This document shows positions 13,173 through 33,079 of a stretch of 64,000 bases of DNA, piece after piece. The notes beneath the pieces were generated by a model. That model was not told where the DNA came from and did no database searches. It was given only the letters and a program-made list of their open reading frames with translations. The stretch's first letter is position 1, and each line of letters begins with the position of its first letter. The DNA lies in the IMG/VR virus record IMGVR_UViG_3300031951_000022, positions 93,713 to 157,712 of that record; one strand, given 5' to 3'. This stretch comes from a virus. Position numbers and translations under genes: made by a program.

Positions 13173-13988
13173 TTATGTTGATGCTTTAATTAATATGTTT
13201 TTACTCCTCATACAATGAACAATGTTTGACTTAATTGGAAACTTATCTCCTGTCATATAATCTTCAAAAGTCCAGTCTGCATATTCTGGAAGCTTATTTC
13301 TCCAATAGCCAGTCCAATCACTAGCCCATAGCCAACTGGTTTTTTCTAAGGTTCTTTCTTCTGGGTTTTGCATGCAATGACCTAAGAAGGCCAAAGACAC
13401 CTCTTCTGTAAAATTATAGTAGCCCTTCTTTTTCGCATAAAAGAAAAAATTAAGTCCAATATTATAAAATTCGTCTATATAATTTTTATCAACTATCCAA
13501 AATCCAGCATTAGTATTATAGATCTTATCTAACTTTAAGCCAGTTTCTTCATACAATGGTTTATATTTTTCCACAGGACAACCCCACCAATCTTTTCTTT
13601 TAGCATTGGGTGAGGTAATTTCGTTCTCCATTTGAGCAAAAATTTTATGACCATCCATCATATGTATAAAATCGCCCGGATGATTAACAAAATAATTGTC
13701 GGCGTCTAAAAAAACATAATAGTCATAATTTAAACTGCTAACTTGTTCTTTGAGAAAGTGAAACTTAAACATATATAGGGATTTTTCAAAAGTACCACAC
13801 TTATGAACATTGGCCCCGTTTATATGTTCCATATCTGTCCATATGTGAAAGTCCTCTTGTACTCCACAGTCTCGGGCTGATTTCACCATTGTTTGTGCCA
13901 TTTTGGCATGGTGTCCATCAGCAACTGTCCAATAGCAAAATGTTTTATTTGCTATATCCTTTGAAGTTTTTAAATCCATACTCTCCAT
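13173..13988 (-). CDS. Glycosyltransferase, GT-A fold (GT8-like)
   Basis: YVFLDAD DxD motif, YNTNAGF, EE motif, C-terminal IVH. Confidence 0.6.
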   Translation of the reverse strand: MESMDLKTSKDIANKTFCYWTVADGHHAKMAQTMVKSARDCGVQEDFHIWTDMEHINGANVHKCGTFEKSLYMFKFHFLKEQVSSLNYDYYVFLDADNYFVNHPGDFIHMMDGHKIFAQMENEITSPNAKRKDWWGCPVEKYKPLYEETGLKLDKIYNTNAGFWIVDKNYIDEFYNIGLNFFFYAKKKGYYNFTEEVSLAFLGHCMQNPEERTLEKTSWLWASDWTGYWRNKLPEYADWTFEDYMTGDKFPIKSNIVHCMRSKNILIKAST

Positions 13989-26612: not shown

Positions 26613-26640
26613 ATTATAAAAAGTGGGGCGTAGGTGTCAA
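26613..26640 (-). promoter_or_regulatory. Sigma70-type promoter upstream of ssb
   Basis: TTGACA (26640-26635), 16 nt, TATAAT (26618-26613). Confidence 0.75.
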
Positions 26641-29036
26641 GTTCTAGCTACGTAAGCCTTGTCTACAATAAGGCCATCTCCGCTCTTAGACTTTGACCCC
26701 TTAACAATAATAATATTTCCGACGAACAACAGGTTTTTGTATTCGCTATATTTTTCTGGAAAAAACACGATAGAGTCAATAGATCCCGTGGTGTCCGTCA
26801 TTGTAACGAAAGCCATTTCTGCTCCAGGATTTTTACCGGTTTTGGTTTTCGTAACATTAATAAAGTCTATCTCTCCACCAAGTATAAGATTGTCTTTTTG
26901 TGTTGTGGTTTTCAGTTCTTTGCAATTAATATTAGTCATACTAATATCATACATATCAATCTTAGAACAAGTAATAGAACAACCCAGCAACACATCCTCA
27001 GAATCTGCTAACCACTCAGGACTATCGTCTAGAGAATAAGGAGGATTATTTAATGACACTATCATATCTTGGATATTGCTTTTGCGGTTTTTATTAATTC
27101 TAGGCAGTCCTAGCAGAAACTCTAGACAGCCCTTTAAGTCTTTAAAAGAGACTAGATGCACACTGATATGCTCTATCTCTTTTTTGGTTAAGCTGCTAAT
27201 TAAATTATATTCAAATAGCATCTTATTGCGAGTCATAGGCAAAAAGCTTAAAGCTCCACTTTGTATCAAAGCCTTTGCTGCTGTAGAATTAATATTGTTT
27301 AATACCAAAAATAAAAACTCTAACCATGTTGTTTTGGTCAAGTCCATTTTAGATATTATAGATATTAGCTTATCATATACTGATTTGCCGACACCCTTAA
27401 TGTCTGTTAATCCAAAATATATAGTATTATTTTTTAAGATAAATAGCTCATTTTTGTTTCTAATATCTGGAGTTTTAACCAATACGTCCATTTCATTGGC
27501 GTTTTGAATTAACTCCTTAATTTCTGCTTGAGGATCTATTTTATCCTTAGCAAATCTTAAATATGATGCAAAAAAGATTTTGGGGAAGTGTGCTTTAGTA
27601 TAGGCGGATAGATATGCATTAATAGCATAGCTTACTGAGTGAGACTTATTGAACGAATATCTTTGACTCTTTTCGATCCAACTAAAAATCTGTTCTGCCT
27701 CATCAACTGTTACAATGCCTAGCTTTTGAGACCCCTCCAAGAACTTACTTTTGACCTTTGCCATTTCTTCCGGTTTTTTCTTACCAATAGCCTTTCTTAA
27801 CATATCTGCTTCTTGCAGATTAAATCCAGCTATAGCCTTAGTTATTTCCATAGCCTGTTCTTGATATACCATTTCCCCATAGGTGTTTTGCAAAGAGTCT
27901 TTCAGAGCTTCGTGAAAATAGTCCACAGACTCTAATCCATTTTTTTTGTCTATATAATGATTAGATACTGTTTTACCATCTCTCACAGCCTCAAGACAAT
28001 TATGAACTATTACATTACCAGCAATAAAATTGTGGTGGGGCGACTCCATAGATATATCATAAACCTTTTTATATCCAGTGCTAATTTTATCTATATAAGT
28101 AGCCCATTTACAGTCATCGCTATAAGATAGTCTATATTTTTTTCTTGCTTCTATAATAGTATCTATATCAATATTACCTTCTGAATATTCTCTATGATGG
28201 TTTGGACATAAATAACAAAGATTTTCAACATCATTATTGGTATGTCTATTTCCTTCAAGGTGATTAACATCTAAAGATCCTTTATCCCAATCACAAAAAA
28301 CACATCTGTATTCATAGTTTTGATAACATCTTAATTTATATGATTTAATACCATCAATATTATCAATACTAATTTTTGAAGAATGTCTGGATTTAATCTT
28401 TTTCTTTAATTTTTTGGTTCCGTTTTTCTTTCTTATAACCAATATCCTCATTCCGGGCTTCATATCTTTAAGCTCTACCCATCCATTAGGAGTTAAAAGC
28501 TTATGGTCATCTGTACATTCTACTTTATACCAATTGTATGGTAATGTATTAGTTTTTCTTTCATTAGTCTTTATCTTGATCTTGAAACATTCTTTAATAC
28601 CACTATCAATAATATCTAATATTTTGTTTGAAACTAATTTTTTAGACTTTTCATCATACGATATAATTCTGTCATATTGACGATCTTTAAATAGTTTTTC
28701 TATTGAAATAGTTTTATTTCTTAAACGACCATCGGTATGAGTATAATAGCCTACTAAGATCTTAGTATCTCCAGCAATACACCCAGGTCTCATAATACTA
28801 ATCAGGGCAGAAAGCTGCTCTATGTTTTCTGGCTTTAGTTTTTTAGCCATAGACCTTCCCAGTCTAGACTCTAGCTGAAAACAACCCTTGGTATTACCGT
28901 CAGATATAAGATCCCACGTTCTTTGACATTCCAGATTAATATTTTCTATAGAAGAATCGAACTTTATACTCAGTCCATTATTCTGCTCTACTATATCAAA
29001 GGAACATCCACAAGGGTATTGGTATTTTTTAGACAT
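26637..29036 (-). CDS. dnaE: DNA polymerase III alpha, C-terminal subunit (split DnaE), intein-containing
   Basis: GCFQLES, RPG, YQEQAM, ADMLRKAIGKK, YSFNKSHSVSY, GLTDIKGVG, C-terminal OB fold MAFVTMTD. Confidence 0.95.
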   Translation of the reverse strand: MSKKYQYPCGCSFDIVEQNNGLSIKFDSSIENINLECQRTWDLISDGNTKGCFQLESRLGRSMAKKLKPENIEQLSALISIMRPGCIAGDTKILVGYYTHTDGRLRNKTISIEKLFKDRQYDRIISYDEKSKKLVSNKILDIIDSGIKECFKIKIKTNERKTNTLPYNWYKVECTDDHKLLTPNGWVELKDMKPGMRILVIRKKNGTKKLKKKIKSRHSSKISIDNIDGIKSYKLRCYQNYEYRCVFCDWDKGSLDVNHLEGNRHTNNDVENLCYLCPNHHREYSEGNIDIDTIIEARKKYRLSYSDDCKWATYIDKISTGYKKVYDISMESPHHNFIAGNVIVHNCLEAVRDGKTVSNHYIDKKNGLESVDYFHEALKDSLQNTYGEMVYQEQAMEITKAIAGFNLQEADMLRKAIGKKKPEEMAKVKSKFLEGSQKLGIVTVDEAEQIFSWIEKSQRYSFNKSHSVSYAINAYLSAYTKAHFPKIFFASYLRFAKDKIDPQAEIKELIQNANEMDVLVKTPDIRNKNELFILKNNTIYFGLTDIKGVGKSVYDKLISIISKMDLTKTTWLEFLFLVLNNINSTAAKALIQSGALSFLPMTRNKMLFEYNLISSLTKKEIEHISVHLVSFKDLKGCLEFLLGLPRINKNRKSNIQDMIVSLNNPPYSLDDSPEWLADSEDVLLGCSITCSKIDMYDISMTNINCKELKTTTQKDNLILGGEIDFINVTKTKTGKNPGAEMAFVTMTDTTGSIDSIVFFPEKYSEYKNLLFVGNIIIVKGSKSKSGDGLIVDKAYVART
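27999..28781 (-). mobile_element. Intein (261 aa) with HNH endonuclease domain in DnaE-C
   Basis: Starts CIAGDTKI after RPG; block B CTDDHKLL; ends VYDI...HNFIAGNVIVHN/C; internal CVFC...NHLEGNRHTNNDVENLCYLCPNHH. Confidence 0.9.
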
Positions 29037-29730
29037 TTTCGTTCTTGGTGAAGGCGTTCTTAAACTTAATCTTTTGTCCCAAATTTCTATGTAACTTTAA
29101 AAATCTAATAATTATTTCAGCGGTATCTCTAACGTCCTTTAAGGCGTCGTGGGCACCTTCTTTGGAAATTCCGAAATAATCTCGCAAACTATCAAGAGTG
29201 TAGCTTTTTAAGTCATTATTATTTTCGAACCAATAAAAGATTAAATTCATACCATCAATAACATCTCTTGGATAAAAAATATCTGTTCGCCCTTCCTTAT
29301 TTAGGTTGCCGTACTTATTACTAAGCCGATCAACAATATGAAGGTCGAATCTGTTGATATTGTATCCCGCCGCAATAGGAGCGCTAAATTGGCTTTTCTT
29401 AGAACTTCTGGAATGATATTTATCCAGATAGTTAATAAACATCTTCCATGAGTGTTCTTGTTTTGGATATTGATGCCAAGCCTTTAAAACATCATCTTGG
29501 GAACACCCCTTAACTTTAGAGTGAAATTCCAAAATGTCGGTTTCGTATCTATGGTCTTTGTTATTTTCTAGAACTTCTGGCTTGAAATGCATATTAAATT
29601 CTGACCCATCAATAACCTCTAATTGTAGAGGATCTATCATAAGTGCAGCAATTTGTACAGGACTGCAAACCCTAGGATCAGAACCGTCTGTTTCAAAATC
29701 AAAAACGCAAATCTTATTATAGTTGATCAT
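29029..29730 (-). CDS. dnaQ: DEDDh 3'-5' exonuclease (DnaQ/epsilon-like)
   Basis: VFDFETDG, GYNINRFD, AHDALKD. Confidence 0.85.
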   Translation of the reverse strand: MINYNKICVFDFETDGSDPRVCSPVQIAALMIDPLQLEVIDGSEFNMHFKPEVLENNKDHRYETDILEFHSKVKGCSQDDVLKAWHQYPKQEHSWKMFINYLDKYHSRSSKKSQFSAPIAAGYNINRFDLHIVDRLSNKYGNLNKEGRTDIFYPRDVIDGMNLIFYWFENNNDLKSYTLDSLRDYFGISKEGAHDALKDVRDTAEIIIRFLKLHRNLGQKIKFKNAFTKNENV

Positions 29731-29902
29731 TTACTTCTACTTCTACATTGGGTGATAGAAACGTTGTATTCTTTTCATTTGCTGTTGCATGAGCATTGAT
29801 TGATCGACAGCAGCTTACTTTTACTGTTGCAGTCTTCTTATATTCAATACCTTTGTGTGTGAATGTTTCGCCTTCTGCAATTTCTGAAAACTTCTTAATC
29901 AT
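29717..29902 (-). CDS. Small hypothetical protein
   Basis: 61 aa, ATGA-coupled to dnaE-N stop, GGAG SD. Confidence 0.6.
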   Translation of the reverse strand: MIKKFSEIAEGETFTHKGIEYKKTATVKVSCCRSINAHATANEKNTTFLSPNVEVEVNDQL

Positions 29903-31783
29903 ATTTCTACTCCTTCTATTAAGAGATCTTGTATTGTCATAATCTTATCTAACATCGCTACGCCTAAAACATCAAATTTAATAATACCAATAGCTTCTAG
30001 GTCTTGCATTTCCATTCCGGCAATTAGCTGATTATTTTTACTATCAAAAACCATAGGACATAATTCGCTTAATGGCTCTGAACTAATAGCAATACCAGCC
30101 GCGTGTTTGGACTGATTAGACTTAGTTCCTTCTAATCTAATAGCCTGCTCAAACCTTTTTGCCAACGGCCCCTGTAGTTCTCCTTTGTCGTCAATATAGC
30201 ACCACTCCTTGAGCTTTTCAGAATTATTTTCTAAAGCCCAACGAATAATAGATGCCTCTCCAGTTTCTTCTTTCATTTCTTGTAGTTCATCTGCAATCTT
30301 AGCTTCATCTGGAATATTTTTAGTAATACGATTCATTTCTTCAAAACTAATATTACCATATACTCTTAATACGTCCTTAAGAGCACCTCTTCCCTTGATG
30401 GTGTTAAAGGTAACCATTTGAGATACTTTATCATGACTATACTTATCTTTGATATATTGAATAATTACTTCACGCTTATTAATAGGAACGTCAACATCAA
30501 TATCTGGCATACTAATACGATCTTTGGTGTTTCGGCCAGAATTATAAAATCTATCAAAGAATAGGTTGTATTTGATTGGATCAATACTGGTAATACCTAT
30601 TAGATATGATACCAGACATCCAGCCGCACTTCCTCGTCCCGGTCCCGGAAGCCACCCACTTGTTCGCACATAATTTACAATATCTTGTACTATCAAAAAG
30701 TAGCTACTTAAATTCGCCCCCTGTAAAACATCTAGTTCATATTTGATTCTATCTACATATTGTTGTTGATCGTCTTTTGGTATGATATTAGCAATTTTTT
30801 CTTTCCAGCCCTTACGACAAAGCTCTCTAAGATATTCTGCGTCATCAAAACCTTTCGGACAATCAAATGGAGGTAGTTTAGGCTTGCTTAGGATATCATA
30901 TTCTTCTATAAGACTAGCCACATATTGTGTGTTTGCTATTTCTTCTTCTGTATGCAAGGCTGCCATTTCTTCTTGAGAAAGAATATGGTAATTATCTGAT
31001 GTGAAAAAGCATCCCATAGGCACATCTTCGTCATTACTAATCTTACGACTAATTTCTGGAAATGTAGTTTTCAAATTGTTACAGAGCAAAATGCGCTGAT
31101 CAATAGCGTCCTCTTTACGACAATAATGTGCGTCTGGAGTACAAATAACTTTTGTATCTGTTTGCTTACCAATTTCTCTAATAGCTTTTGTAAGCTCTTT
31201 TTGTACGGTTAGATTTTCGGCATCCATTAGTTGGGCCTCTAAAAACACACCACTAAAGTGCTTCTTAAGATCTAAAACATGATTCTTTCCTAGCTCTAGC
31301 CAGTTTGGTTTGAGTTGATAATTATCCAGAATAGTGTCAGCTAGGGTTGATCCTAGATGTCCGGTGATAGCAATTAAATTACCGTCATTTAAAGCATAGA
31401 GGCTTTTTAGGTCTAGTCTAGGCTTATGATAATAATTCTCCGGTCTATTGGATTCTGATACTATACGAACGAGAGTTTTCCATCCATCATAGTTTTTAGA
31501 CAAAATTAGAAAATGGCTTAATTCTTTATTATGCTTTTCTTTAATGGTTGGATCATTGTCGCAAATATAAAGCTCACAACCAAGAATCGGCTTAATGCCA
31601 GCCTGTTTCATTGCCATATAAAATTTAACAGCACCGGCAATATTACCATGATCTGTGATAGCACATGCTGTTGCTCCAATCTCTTTGCATCTTTCTGCCA
31701 TTTGTTCTGGTTTAGATAGTCCATCCAAAAGTGAGAACATAGCCCACTTAGGAATGGACATGAAGCGGTATATAGTTGCTCAT
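29899..31783 (-). CDS. dnaE: DNA polymerase III alpha, N-terminal subunit (PHP + palm); frame interrupted by a 10-nt insert at 31741-31750
   Basis: TDHGN, GCE, DAHY, GPGRGSAAGCLVSY, PDIDVD, KHAAG, IKFDVLG; upstream 11-codon frame MSNYIPLHVHS (31783-31751) supplies the missing HxH motif; 624 aa if the insert is skipped. Confidence 0.9.
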
Positions 31784-31791
31784 GTCCATCC
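31719..31791 (-). other. Structured candidate recoding element (10-nt coding gap plus alternative hairpins)
   Basis: UCC UAA GUGGGCU AUG; 15-bp hairpin 31719-31759; competing hairpin 31751-31791. Confidence 0.65.
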
Positions 31792-32100
31792 AATTTTCTC
31801 CTTGTTGGCTACGACCTTCTCACATAATTTAATAAATATATGTAAAGGAAAGTCTAGTTTCATTTTATTAATATCTTTTTTGACCCACCAAACATTATTT
31901 TTGACGTATCCTTTAGAACTATCAATTCTATCTAATGACCCGTCTTTGTCAAGATCAATTTCTTCGCCTGTGATGGCACACTTTTTATTCTGGGTTTCTG
32001 TATAAAGTTTCCACAAAAATTCAATGGGTATGTAGCTATTCAGCCGAGCCAGGAGCCTTGTACTTTCCAATAGTATATCCCGGAACTGTGTATTCGTCAA
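31780..32100 (-). pseudogene. Free-standing HNH-type endonuclease, apparently N-terminally truncated
   Basis: FLWKLY..QNKKCAITG...SLDRIDSSKGYVKNNVWWVKKDINKMK; only the nuclease core present; ATG lies inside the upstream gene. Confidence 0.65.
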
Positions 32101-33079
32101 CTACATTTTCCATCCCCTTGAGTTGAATATCATGCTTAATTTGTTCGCACTTGGTCATTGCTGTATCAACAGAACACAACTGACCATCTCTATACTCAAG
32201 GATTGGTAGAACATGACTATTTTGAAATGTTGTTTTACCAAAATGACAAAGCTTATTACATTTCCAAGACTTATTTAATTGAGGGACTTTAGTGCTTTTA
32301 ATTGTTTCAAATTTTTGCCTAATCATATCTTCTGTTTTGGGCAGGTCGTTCTTATCGTAGCATATGCTAAATGCTCCGCCATCATTAATGAAATTAATTG
32401 TGAATATGATATGTTCTATTTTTGGATACAGCTGACTTACAGCATAATGATAAATTCTTAATTGGGGGTCATTATGTAATTTTGCTAAGGTTTTTTCTTC
32501 GCCAGTTGCCCAATCTAATCTACGACCAGTTTTCCAGTCTACAATTTCAATAGTATTATCGTCAATAGAGGTAATAAGGTCAATAGTGCCTTTAATAGCC
32601 AATTGTCCTTCTAGAATTTCTCCATCAATATTGTATTTATAATTAGCCCACGGCTTATTGATCACAATATCAAAGTGCTGCTCTGGCTGTAGTATGTTTC
32701 TCAACCTAGGGTCAAAGGATTTGTTGTGGTCTGTGATTGCTTTATAGCACCACTTGTGGCAGTCTTTAAAATCTTTAACATCCCACTCATGGTGTTTAAA
32801 CTGGGACGTATAATAATCATAGACCTGTTCAATAATATGGTCTAAATTATACTTGTCAACACTAATGTCTCCAAGAATATCGTCATTATATATTTTTTGA
32901 TTATTCTGTGTACATAGCTTAATATGGGCTAATATTTCTAATACCTTATGACAAATTGTGCCTTTATCGGCTTTAATTCCAGATGGCGAACGTATACCTA
33001 GGACATATTCAATAAAATACTGTTGAGGACACATAGAGTGTGTTCCATAAGAACTGCTTCTTAAATATGTGATTATAAT
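32036..33079 (-). CDS. Cas4/RecB-like PD-(D/E)XK exonuclease
   Basis: CPQQY, GTICHKVLE, KGTIDL, IVDWKTG, QLRIYHYA, C-terminal Cys cluster; probable ATT start at 33079 (first ATG 33034). Confidence 0.85.
   Translation of the reverse strand: MIITYLRSSSYGTHSMCPQQYFIEYVLGIRSPSGIKADKGTICHKVLEILAHIKLCTQNNQKIYNDDILGDISVDKYNLDHIIEQVYDYYTSQFKHHEWDVKDFKDCHKWCYKAITDHNKSFDPRLRNILQPEQHFDIVINKPWANYKYNIDGEILEGQLAIKGTIDLITSIDDNTIEIVDWKTGRRLDWATGEEKTLAKLHNDPQLRIYHYAVSQLYPKIEHIIFTINFINDGGAFSICYDKNDLPKTEDMIRQKFETIKSTKVPQLNKSWKCNKLCHFGKTTFQNSHVLPILEYRDGQLCSVDTAMTKCEQIKHDIQLKGMENVVDEYTVPGYTIGKYKAPGSAE

Follow-up and report, generated by a model that had tools for sequence, protein, structure and literature searches.

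A probable short translational bypass in a phage dnaE gene, linked to an HNH-like homing-endonuclease cassette

In a 64,000-nucleotide (nt) stretch of a 157.7-kb virus record of 36% G+C (IMG/VR record IMGVR_UViG_3300031951_000022, positions 93,713 to 157,712), hereafter called the window, the polymerase gene dnaE is interrupted near its 5' end by 10 nt that open with a stop codon and lie inside a metal-binding motif of the PHP domain. We propose that ribosomes cross this gap by a programmed short translational bypass, or 'stop-hop', carried by a homing-endonuclease cassette, and based on comparison with relatives we consider this reading likely. The comparison shows that the gap is real, that it keeps its position while its length and frame vary, that its flanking codons are under protein-level selection, that it sits within a co-varying RNA structure and that a nuclease gene is linked to it; the hop, how efficient it may be and what each hairpin does are inferred from these features. 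Somewhat more cautiously, we suggest that the device probably constitutes a second, independently evolved family of phage bypasses, in which a hop of 8-12 nt from UCY to xCN would be driven or gated by hairpins and spread by an endonuclease, with the gap as self-immunity.

A stop-initiated gap inside dnaE

The minus strand of the window reads ATG GAC ATG AGC AAC TAT ATA CCG CTT CAT GTC CAT TCC at 31789..31751, a short open reading frame (mini-ORF) of 13 codons (MDMSNYIPLHVHS; 31751..31789, minus strand) that encodes the first PHP strand with its HxH metal ligands. Its last codon, TCC (31753..31751), is the proposed take-off codon and is followed by the gap TAAGTGGGCT (31750..31741, minus strand), which begins with the stop TAA (31750..31748) and ends with the proposed landing triplet GCT (31743..31741). 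From 31740 dnaE resumes as ATG TTC TCA CTT TTG GAT GGA, in a frame +1 apart from that of the mini-ORF, and this resumed frame (29899..31740, minus strand), which ends at the stop at 29899, encodes the remainder of the PHP domain and the polymerase palm. An earlier note, made from the letters of the window alone, had described a 10-nt gap beginning with a stop inside the PHP motif, and the sequence is exactly as it was described. The downstream ORF as it stands (29899..31761, minus strand) encodes 620 amino acids (aa), starts MSIPKWAMFSLLDG and matches the PHP domain (Pfam, 1.3e-30) and DNA_pol3_alpha (6e-73); as its PHP match begins at profile position 8, the first PHP strand is missing from it. 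In the window's allele the +1 frame is open (MSIPKWAMFS...).

The mini-ORF that the note had recognized does exist, but its start was placed at ATG 31783, probably 6 nt too far downstream. We regard ATG 31789 as the more likely start because the Shine-Dalgarno (SD) sequence AAGGAG (31798..31803, minus strand) lies 8 nt upstream of it and because every relative starts M-D/G-M/V. All gap-bearing relatives have an AAGGAG-like motif 7-9 nt 5' of their ATG, and an enrichment of SD motifs is seen upstream of the genes of the window's phage.

A protein search of viral contigs returned 80 loci with 69-85% amino-acid identity, in about 60-70 of which M-(K)-N-Y-I-P-L-H-x-H-S-x-F/Y-S-L-L-D-G runs uninterrupted, while nine carry an insert at the identical place, right after the Ser codon. 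DNA-pattern searches of viral and metagenome contigs extended the gap device to 58 distinct sequence contexts. Counting as a variant each distinct combination of take-off codon, gap and resume codon, we obtained 39 variants with 31 distinct gap sequences. Assembly error, which the note had raised as an alternative, is ruled out, since stop-initiated gaps occupy the same site in these 58 independent contexts and the variants, in many independent contigs, differ from one another. The note had also predicted that insert-free alleles would encode HVHSxFSLLDG, and gap-free relatives are indeed contiguous through HxHS-x-Y/F-SLLDG and never have extra residues at the gap position. All gap-bearing genes that can be read to a stop codon inside the fetched locus are of normal ORF length.

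Other collections added little. Megablast against GenBank phages returned no close relative, and tblastn against the same phages found only relatives of at most 34% identity, which align from residue 9 on and are uninformative on the gap. Among 185,579 prokaryote genomes there was one true match, L157 (RFVO01000077.1), an 8-kb contig binned with a Chitinophagia metagenome-assembled genome, which is a weak hint of the host or a binning artefact; the other 22 matches in these genomes were due to chance.

The 39 variants share a strict anatomy at variable length. Their gaps measure 8 nt (2 variants), 9 nt (8), 10 nt (13), 11 nt (14) or 12 nt (2), which means that all three frame relations are represented, and no gap longer than 12 nt occurs at the dnaE site among the collected loci. 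A stop stands directly 3' of a Ser TCY codon in 39 of 39, with TAA, TAG and TGA each in use; take-off is from TCY without exception, whereas AGY also occurs at this position in gap-free alleles. The last triplet of the gap is TCN in 27 variants, ACT, GCT or GCC in 11 and TTT in one, its middle base being C in 38 of the 39, and the window's own GCT matches the take-off tRNA-Ser at two of three positions. C is otherwise nearly absent, which leaves the gap free of triplets for a premature landing: once the last triplet is left aside, the gaps hold two C among 221 bases, and in 28 of the 31 distinct gaps the first C to appear is the one in the middle of the landing triplet. The resume codon is CAY, ATG or GAA, followed by Y/F-S-L-L-D-G, and 23 of the 39 variants have neither ATG nor GTG nor TTG in frame between stop and resume codon.

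The sister alleles L100 and L108, with gaps of 11 and 12 nt, differ by one base inside the gap, and the window's allele (10 nt) and that of L047 (11 nt) share a near-identical cassette. In two 10-nt variants, TAAGTGAACT and TAGGTGATCT, the +1 frame contains TGA.

Two loci depart from the common pattern. In L164 (IMGVR_UViG_3300024518_002703, near 13967) Val is encoded by GTT in place of GTC, and its 9-nt gap, TAAGTGTTT, is the sole one whose last triplet is without the middle C; a GTG stands in frame there. L201 (IMGVR_UViG_3300021379_000892, minus strand, about 2123-2139) is a gap-free allele encoding MNYTPLHVHS-E-YSLLDG, with the cassette-like nucleotides GTCCATTCT … TCACTTTTGGATGGAC but no 5' arm; it may reflect precise loss of the gap or an ancestral target sequence.

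Coding and RNA constraints on both sides of the gap

In relatives the mini-ORF has 13-15 codons and reads M-D/G-M/V-x-x-(x)-Y-x-P-L-H-V-H-S. Across 26 distinct versions of this upstream part, every change in the Y, P, L, H and S codons is synonymous, with five Leu codons and two codons each for Pro, His, Ser and Tyr in use, and the position after Y is occupied by I, V, T, A or S, similar to gap-free genes. Downstream of the gap, the resume codon (x) and the Y/F codon change mainly at the third position or among residues that gap-free alleles also have. The HxH of gap-bearing genes is encoded only by the mini-ORF, and at the seven further PHP ligand positions (D of SLLDG, H of TDH, E of GCE, SH, GH, and D and H of PDAH) there is no variation among 27 gap-bearing and 57 gap-free proteins, in agreement with the earlier statement that the remaining motifs (TDHG, GCE, DAH) are intact. 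As these other ligands are invariant, a complete metal site is under selection, and the mini-ORF is the only possible source of its HxH. On these codon patterns both flanks of the gap are translated and under protein-level selection, and together, as the contiguous gap-free relatives show, they encode one conserved protein.

The same nucleotides are held by RNA structure. The whole mini-ORF folds as one stem-loop, the 5' hairpin (31751..31791, minus strand), in which GGAUGGACAUG, of the start-codon region, pairs with CAUGUCCAUUCC, made up of the His-Val-His codons and the take-off codon; in general terms (G)AUGGRCRUG pairs with CAYGUCCAU(UCC). In the window this hairpin has a folding energy of -19.0 kcal/mol (z = -6.7). 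Its outer stem is 99.1% paired in the 39 distinct sequences, and in one covarying pair, GC in 21 and AU in 16, a synonymous switch between the His codons CAC and CAU goes together with GUG or AUG at codon 3. The sequence of the inner stems varies, and yet they form in every member when folded individually; in the MAFFT alignment, which is poor in this region, 64% of the inner-stem cells are paired.

A second hairpin, the 3' hairpin (31719..31759, minus strand; folding and covariation), consists of two stems. In stem 1, GUCCAUUC (31759..31752) pairs with GGAUGGAC (31726..31719), whereas stem 2 joins the gap to the resumed coding frame: bases 2-3 of the stop codon and the next 4-5 nt pair with the Ser-Leu codons and the preceding base, the last of the Y/F codon, which in the window is AAGUGGG (31749..31743) against CUCACUU (31735..31729, Phe-Ser-Leu codons). 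The landing triplet is partly in the end of stem 2 and partly in the loop, which also contains the resume codon. This hairpin reaches -18.1 kcal/mol in the window (z = -4.6) and is 98.8% paired across relatives. Stem 2 occurs in at least six compensatory versions (AAGUG:CACUU; UAGUGA:UCACUA; UAGCGA:UCGCUA; GAGUG:CACUC, with a UGA stop; UAGAGAA or UAGGGAA:UUCUCUA; and UAAGGAAA:UUUCUUUA), synonymous changes in the Ser and Leu codons following the sequence of the gap, and when stem 2 partners were shuffled the observed pairing was never reached in 2000 trials. Third positions of S-L-L-D-G are 93-100% conserved in gap-bearing alleles as compared to 53-81% in gap-free ones, which we attribute to stem 2 pairing. 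Recent block transfer as the cause of these frozen synonymous sites was rejected because the conservation stops right after GGA(C). The conservation of GUG(R) in the gap is likewise explained by its pairing with the CAC of the Ser-Leu codons; an SD-like role for it was set aside, as it lies only 1-4 nt 5' of the landing triplet.

In a 91-nt fold the take-off codon has the 5' hairpin on one side and stem 2 on the other, both formed together; stem 1 and the 5' hairpin are in competition for the His-Val-His segment. The minimum free energy per nt is -0.33 in gap-bearing alleles and -0.13 in gap-free alleles, the two distributions showing no overlap. The 5' arm of the cassette together with the gap gave about 50 viral and 28 metagenome matches, as compared to no gap-free junction with the 5' arm in 2.9 million viral contigs and none in 241 million metagenome records. 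No Rfam family matched within 31200-32300.

The adjoining endonuclease gene and the remainder of dnaE

Directly upstream of the mini-ORF lies a truncated HNH-like homing-endonuclease gene (31780..32100, minus strand), a remnant of 106 aa whose TGA overlaps the second ATG of the mini-ORF. It matches the PHROG families endonuclease (1.6e-14) and HNH endonuclease (1.6e-11), and also endonuclease VII families. Intact versions of 242-254 aa occupy the same place in L002, L047, L093, L084 and L124, and remnants of 59-106 aa are found in the window, L004 and L094/L106. The intact L002 copy (L002:2218-2979, plus strand) matches PHROG endonuclease at 1.4e-22 and HNH endonuclease at 3.1e-19, and the family has about 110 relatives, none of which bears a name. 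Sequence searches of Pfam and PDB with the endonuclease gave nothing significant, and there is no Pfam model for it; an AlphaFold model (predicted local distance difference test score, pLDDT, 84.6) found as its best PDB matches the HNH enzymes PacI, Cas9 HNH and Gme HNH, all of them weak (E = 0.05-0.3). The protein carries the motif SLDRID…N…N, in which Arg takes the place normally held by His in HNH enzymes. The family further shows four conserved Cys and an invariant S..RID…GY…N..W…N..K block, and its N-terminal part gives a weak helix-turn-helix signal.

The endonuclease gene adjoins 8 of 39 gap-bearing loci as compared to 1 of 59 gap-free loci (Fisher p = 0.002, uncorrected for ancestry). 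On a DnaE tree of 84 tips the gap-bearing alleles fall into 13 separate clades, which requires at least 12 changes, as compared to 23 for shuffled labels. The cassette of the window is 90-92% identical to that of L047 and 94-99% identical to that of L002, whereas the gene bodies are only about 72% and about 77% identical, respectively. By this comparison the device is linked to the nuclease gene and patchy in the phylogeny, with signs of transfer and decay, and we propose that it travels with the adjacent HNH-like homing endonuclease, probably protecting against its cutting. L012/L013, probably one allele fetched twice, is the sole gap-free case with a nuclease remnant directly upstream (82 aa, 55% identical to that of the window); here the gap may have disappeared once the cassette was in place, or the insertion history may have been different.

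The dnaE gene of the window is also split further downstream. It consists of two genes (26637-31761, minus strand), an N part of 620 aa with the PHP domain and the palm and a C part of 799 aa with the fingers, HhH and OB, the latter containing an intein. Between the halves lie an ORF of 61 aa (29717..29902) and a gene for a DEDDh/RNase T-like exonuclease (29029..29730; PHROG 'DNA polymerase exonuclease subunit', 5.4e-23). As the N part of relatives likewise stops near residue 620, this split is family-wide.

The proposed bypass, its rivals and known systems

We propose that ribosomes would start at ATG 31789 and translate the 13-codon mini-ORF (…PLHVHS), bringing peptidyl-tRNA-Ser onto UCC in the P site and UAA into the A site, where some of them would not terminate. 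The tRNA would leave UCC, the mRNA would slip by 10 nt and the tRNA would re-pair with the xCU triplet that closes the gap; decoding would restart at AUG UUC UCA… and a single DnaE chain with HVHS-M-FSLLDG would be produced. In all variants, re-pairing of tRNA-Ser on an xCN triplet would restore the canonical HVHS-x-Y/F-SLLDG spacing. Of the three routes offered in the earlier note, the first, in which the tRNA hops from UCC to GCU and resumes at AUG, is the sole one that fits all relatives, with their gaps of 8-12 nt in all frames. The broader suggestion of that note, that this polymerase is made by recoding, thereby gains support from the comparison.

The two conserved hairpins are the likely signals for this hop and may serve it in different ways. 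When the tRNA takes off, the 5' hairpin's 3' arm (9 nt, plus an inner arm at about -15 to -10) would be inside the ribosome or at its exit. Zipping of the hairpin behind the ribosome would need about 9-12 nt of mRNA to exit, which agrees with the gap length, and could pull the mRNA through, an idea modelled on gene 60 of phage T4, for which pairing of the exiting mRNA was proposed to drive forward bypassing (bioRxiv 10.1101/2024.12.09.627546). Stem 2, which starts in the stop codon, may hinder the access of release factor, and the stem 1 conformer would leave the start codon accessible to initiating ribosomes.

Several observations weigh against the bypass. The landing GCU of the window pairs with tRNA-Ser at only two of three positions, and altogether 12 of the 39 variants land on non-Ser triplets, one of them (TAAGTGTTT) without the middle C. 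The landing triplet is part of, or adjacent to, the hairpin whose first bases are in the stop and, unlike in T4, this hairpin must melt for landing. The C-poor gap and the fixed TCY could also stem from base-pairing constraints. The nascent peptide, of 13-15 residues, is far shorter than the signal peptide of gene 60, and the statistic for the association with the nuclease takes no account of shared ancestry. Finally, for the window's allele taken alone, a +1 shift (adding KWA) or a start at ATG 31740 or 31761 is formally possible.

Two alternatives retain some footing, both of them in our view unlikely. In the first, the ribosome would terminate at the stop, free the peptide and reinitiate at ATG 31740, giving a split protein in which the peptide complements the PHP barrel non-covalently or is dispensable. 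The resume codon is indeed ATG in the window, GTG is in frame in variants of 8, 9 and 12 nt, dnaE is already split elsewhere, and split proteins left by homing endonucleases are known (bioRxiv 10.1101/2022.08.31.505936). Reinitiation cannot be general, however, since 23 of the 39 variants lack an in-frame ATG, GTG or TTG before the conserved x-Y/F-S codons; moreover, it does not account for the protein-level selection that holds the HxH strand, and the conserved NCN triplet and the C-free gap would be left without a role.

The second alternative, which we consider just as improbable, is that each lineage recodes in a conventional manner: a +1 shift at UCC-UAA for 10-nt gaps, -1/+2 shifts for 8 and 11 nt and stop readthrough for 9 and 12 nt, adding 3-4 residues within the PHP motif. 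The open +1 frame of the window's allele and the open downstream frames of the 11-nt alleles are consistent with it, and there is a resemblance to the +1 frameshift site of prfB, the gene for RF2, where a shift-prone codon near the beginning of an essential gene is likewise followed by a stop in the A site. The prfB site, however, is a fixed +1 with an upstream SD-like stimulator, whereas the dnaE family spans three frames, and some of its +1 frames are closed. With every frame represented and sister alleles only a 1-nt indel apart, no one frameshift mechanism can account for all variants, and one cassette would require three mechanisms that switch by single-base indels. Only 13 of the 39 variants have a 10-nt gap at all, and TGA closes the +1 frame in two of them; no slippery heptamer is present for a -1 shift, the phage is without a suppressor tRNA, and gap-free relatives never carry extra residues at the site. 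The +1 shift adding KWA, put forward in the earlier note as a third route, would be possible for the window's allele alone and fails as a general solution because of the in-frame gaps and of TGA in the +1 frame.

Removal of the 8-12 nt at the RNA level, with rejoining of the ends by a micro-intron or by an endonuclease and a ligase, we judge to be highly unlikely. The hairpins could present cleavage sites, and with a suitable choice of boundaries T + CN restores a Ser codon in every case. Yet there is no match to a ribozyme or RNA family, 8-12 nt cannot hold a self-splicing core, and the viral and metagenome collections, whose records may all derive from DNA, contain no gap-free copy with the 5' arm; removal would also leave the invariable stop after the Ser codon and the matching Ser-like triplet unexplained. 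The micro-intron of the earlier note, its second route, accordingly finds no support, with neither an Rfam family nor a gap-free copy with the 5' arm in its favour.

Least probable of all is a tolerated lesion, in which the gap would be a scar of endonuclease or mobile DNA that kills the first PHP strand, with an internal start and a PHP domain made dispensable by the DEDDh exonuclease; a separate exonuclease gene does sit between the dnaE halves and E. coli-type DnaE works with a degenerate PHP site, but the PLHVHS of the mini-ORF is kept by purely synonymous change, the remaining PHP ligands show no variation, conservation over 13 clades extends to a strong SD, the hairpins and the landing triplet, and many variants are without any start codon.

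An altered code or a suppressor tRNA was rejected, since TAA, TGA and TAG all end ORFs and none of the phage's ten tRNAs is a suppressor. These tRNA genes (13672-57554 of the record, outside the window) are Leu-UAA, Lys, Glu, Ile-UAU, Ser-ACU, Trp, Asn, Gln, Thr and Arg-UCU, and none of them decodes Ser UCN.

Efficient programmed bypassing is known from very few natural systems; the case of phiHau3, discussed below, is partly validated only, and the T4 gene 60 cassette was called 'unique' in 2022 (bioRxiv 10.1101/2022.08.31.505936). If our reading is true, a non-homologous family in another essential gene would make cassettes of endonuclease and bypass a recurrent evolutionary solution. It would also provide a minimal system, of about 110 nt, in which to study take-off hairpins and the refolding of mRNA behind the ribosome, and its dozens of natural length and sequence variants would be a ready mutational series on ribosome sliding. 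In addition, it would explain why gene callers truncate dnaE in a widespread freshwater phage group, where annotation pipelines will miscall the start of the polymerase gene and drop the HxH motif.

Searching of the full-text literature found no description of the dnaE gap device. The nearest in size is the terminase of Streptomyces phage phiHau3, in which 10-nt blocks are bypassed with support from mass spectrometry in E. coli (Antonov et al. 2023, PMC10732093). As in dnaE, a gap on the 10-nt scale interrupts an essential phage gene, and a 5' stem-loop and a nearby landing codon were proposed; the mass spectrometry pointed to bypass and not to frameshifting. In phiHau3, however, the A site holds a rare UUA 'hungry' codon and not a stop, with host cell-cycle sensing proposed as its role; no endonuclease cassette was reported; and a handful of examples stands against dozens of natural dnaE variants. 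The dnaE device, which lies at the extreme 5' end of its gene, would operate like the phiHau3 and gene 60 bypasses while falling in neither family.

Stops are also crossed in two other settings. In mitochondria of Magnusiomyces capitatus, a yeast, as summarized in PMC10732093 and bioRxiv 10.1101/2022.08.31.505936, mobile inserts called 'byps' that begin with a stop or an unassigned codon are skipped and imperfect matches between take-off and landing are tolerated, as would be the case in dnaE; in those summaries, byps differ from the dnaE device in being 27-55 nt long, GC-rich and many per gene, and they come without an endonuclease cassette. In E. coli reporters, the 'stop-hops' of Weiss et al. 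1987, in the account given in PMC10732093, take peptidyl-tRNA across a stop to a nearby similar codon; there they are low-level laboratory events without dedicated RNA signals, whereas the dnaE site is conserved, natural and part of an essential gene.

The closest parallel is the bypass of T4 gene 60, associated with the HNH homing endonuclease MobA (Manning & Atkins, bioRxiv 10.1101/2022.08.31.505936; Wills et al., bioRxiv 10.1101/2024.12.09.627546). Both have a stop right after the take-off codon, a stem-loop that starts in this stop and a 5' stem-loop upstream, and in both the gap splits a metal-binding motif of an essential replication enzyme. The landing triplet of gene 60 can pair with the take-off tRNA, and that of dnaE may do so, fully in the variants with TCN and at two of three positions in those with ACT, GCT or GCC. 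Both are patchy among related phages and adjoin a free-standing endonuclease, HNH in type in gene 60 and HNH-like in dnaE, that has often decayed or been lost while the gap stays, such that the cassette pattern in dnaE, including decay of the nuclease while the bypass persists, is that of the MobA/gene 60 element. The mechanistic details differ. The gene 60 gap, in a topoisomerase large-subunit gene, measures 50 nt as compared to 8-12 nt in dnaE, where only 13-15 codons precede the site, which leaves a very short nascent peptide and places the start codon within the 5' hairpin. Take-off is from Ser UCY in dnaE and from Gly GGA in gene 60, and the landing triplet directly follows the 5' arm of the take-off hairpin in dnaE, whereas in gene 60 it lies beyond the hairpin. 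The 5' hairpin is strongly conserved in the dnaE device and not in gene 60 relatives. No sequence homology is evident between the two, and with dnaE as its host gene and a gap of 8-12 nt the device is an analogue, not a member, of the T4 gene 60/MobA family.

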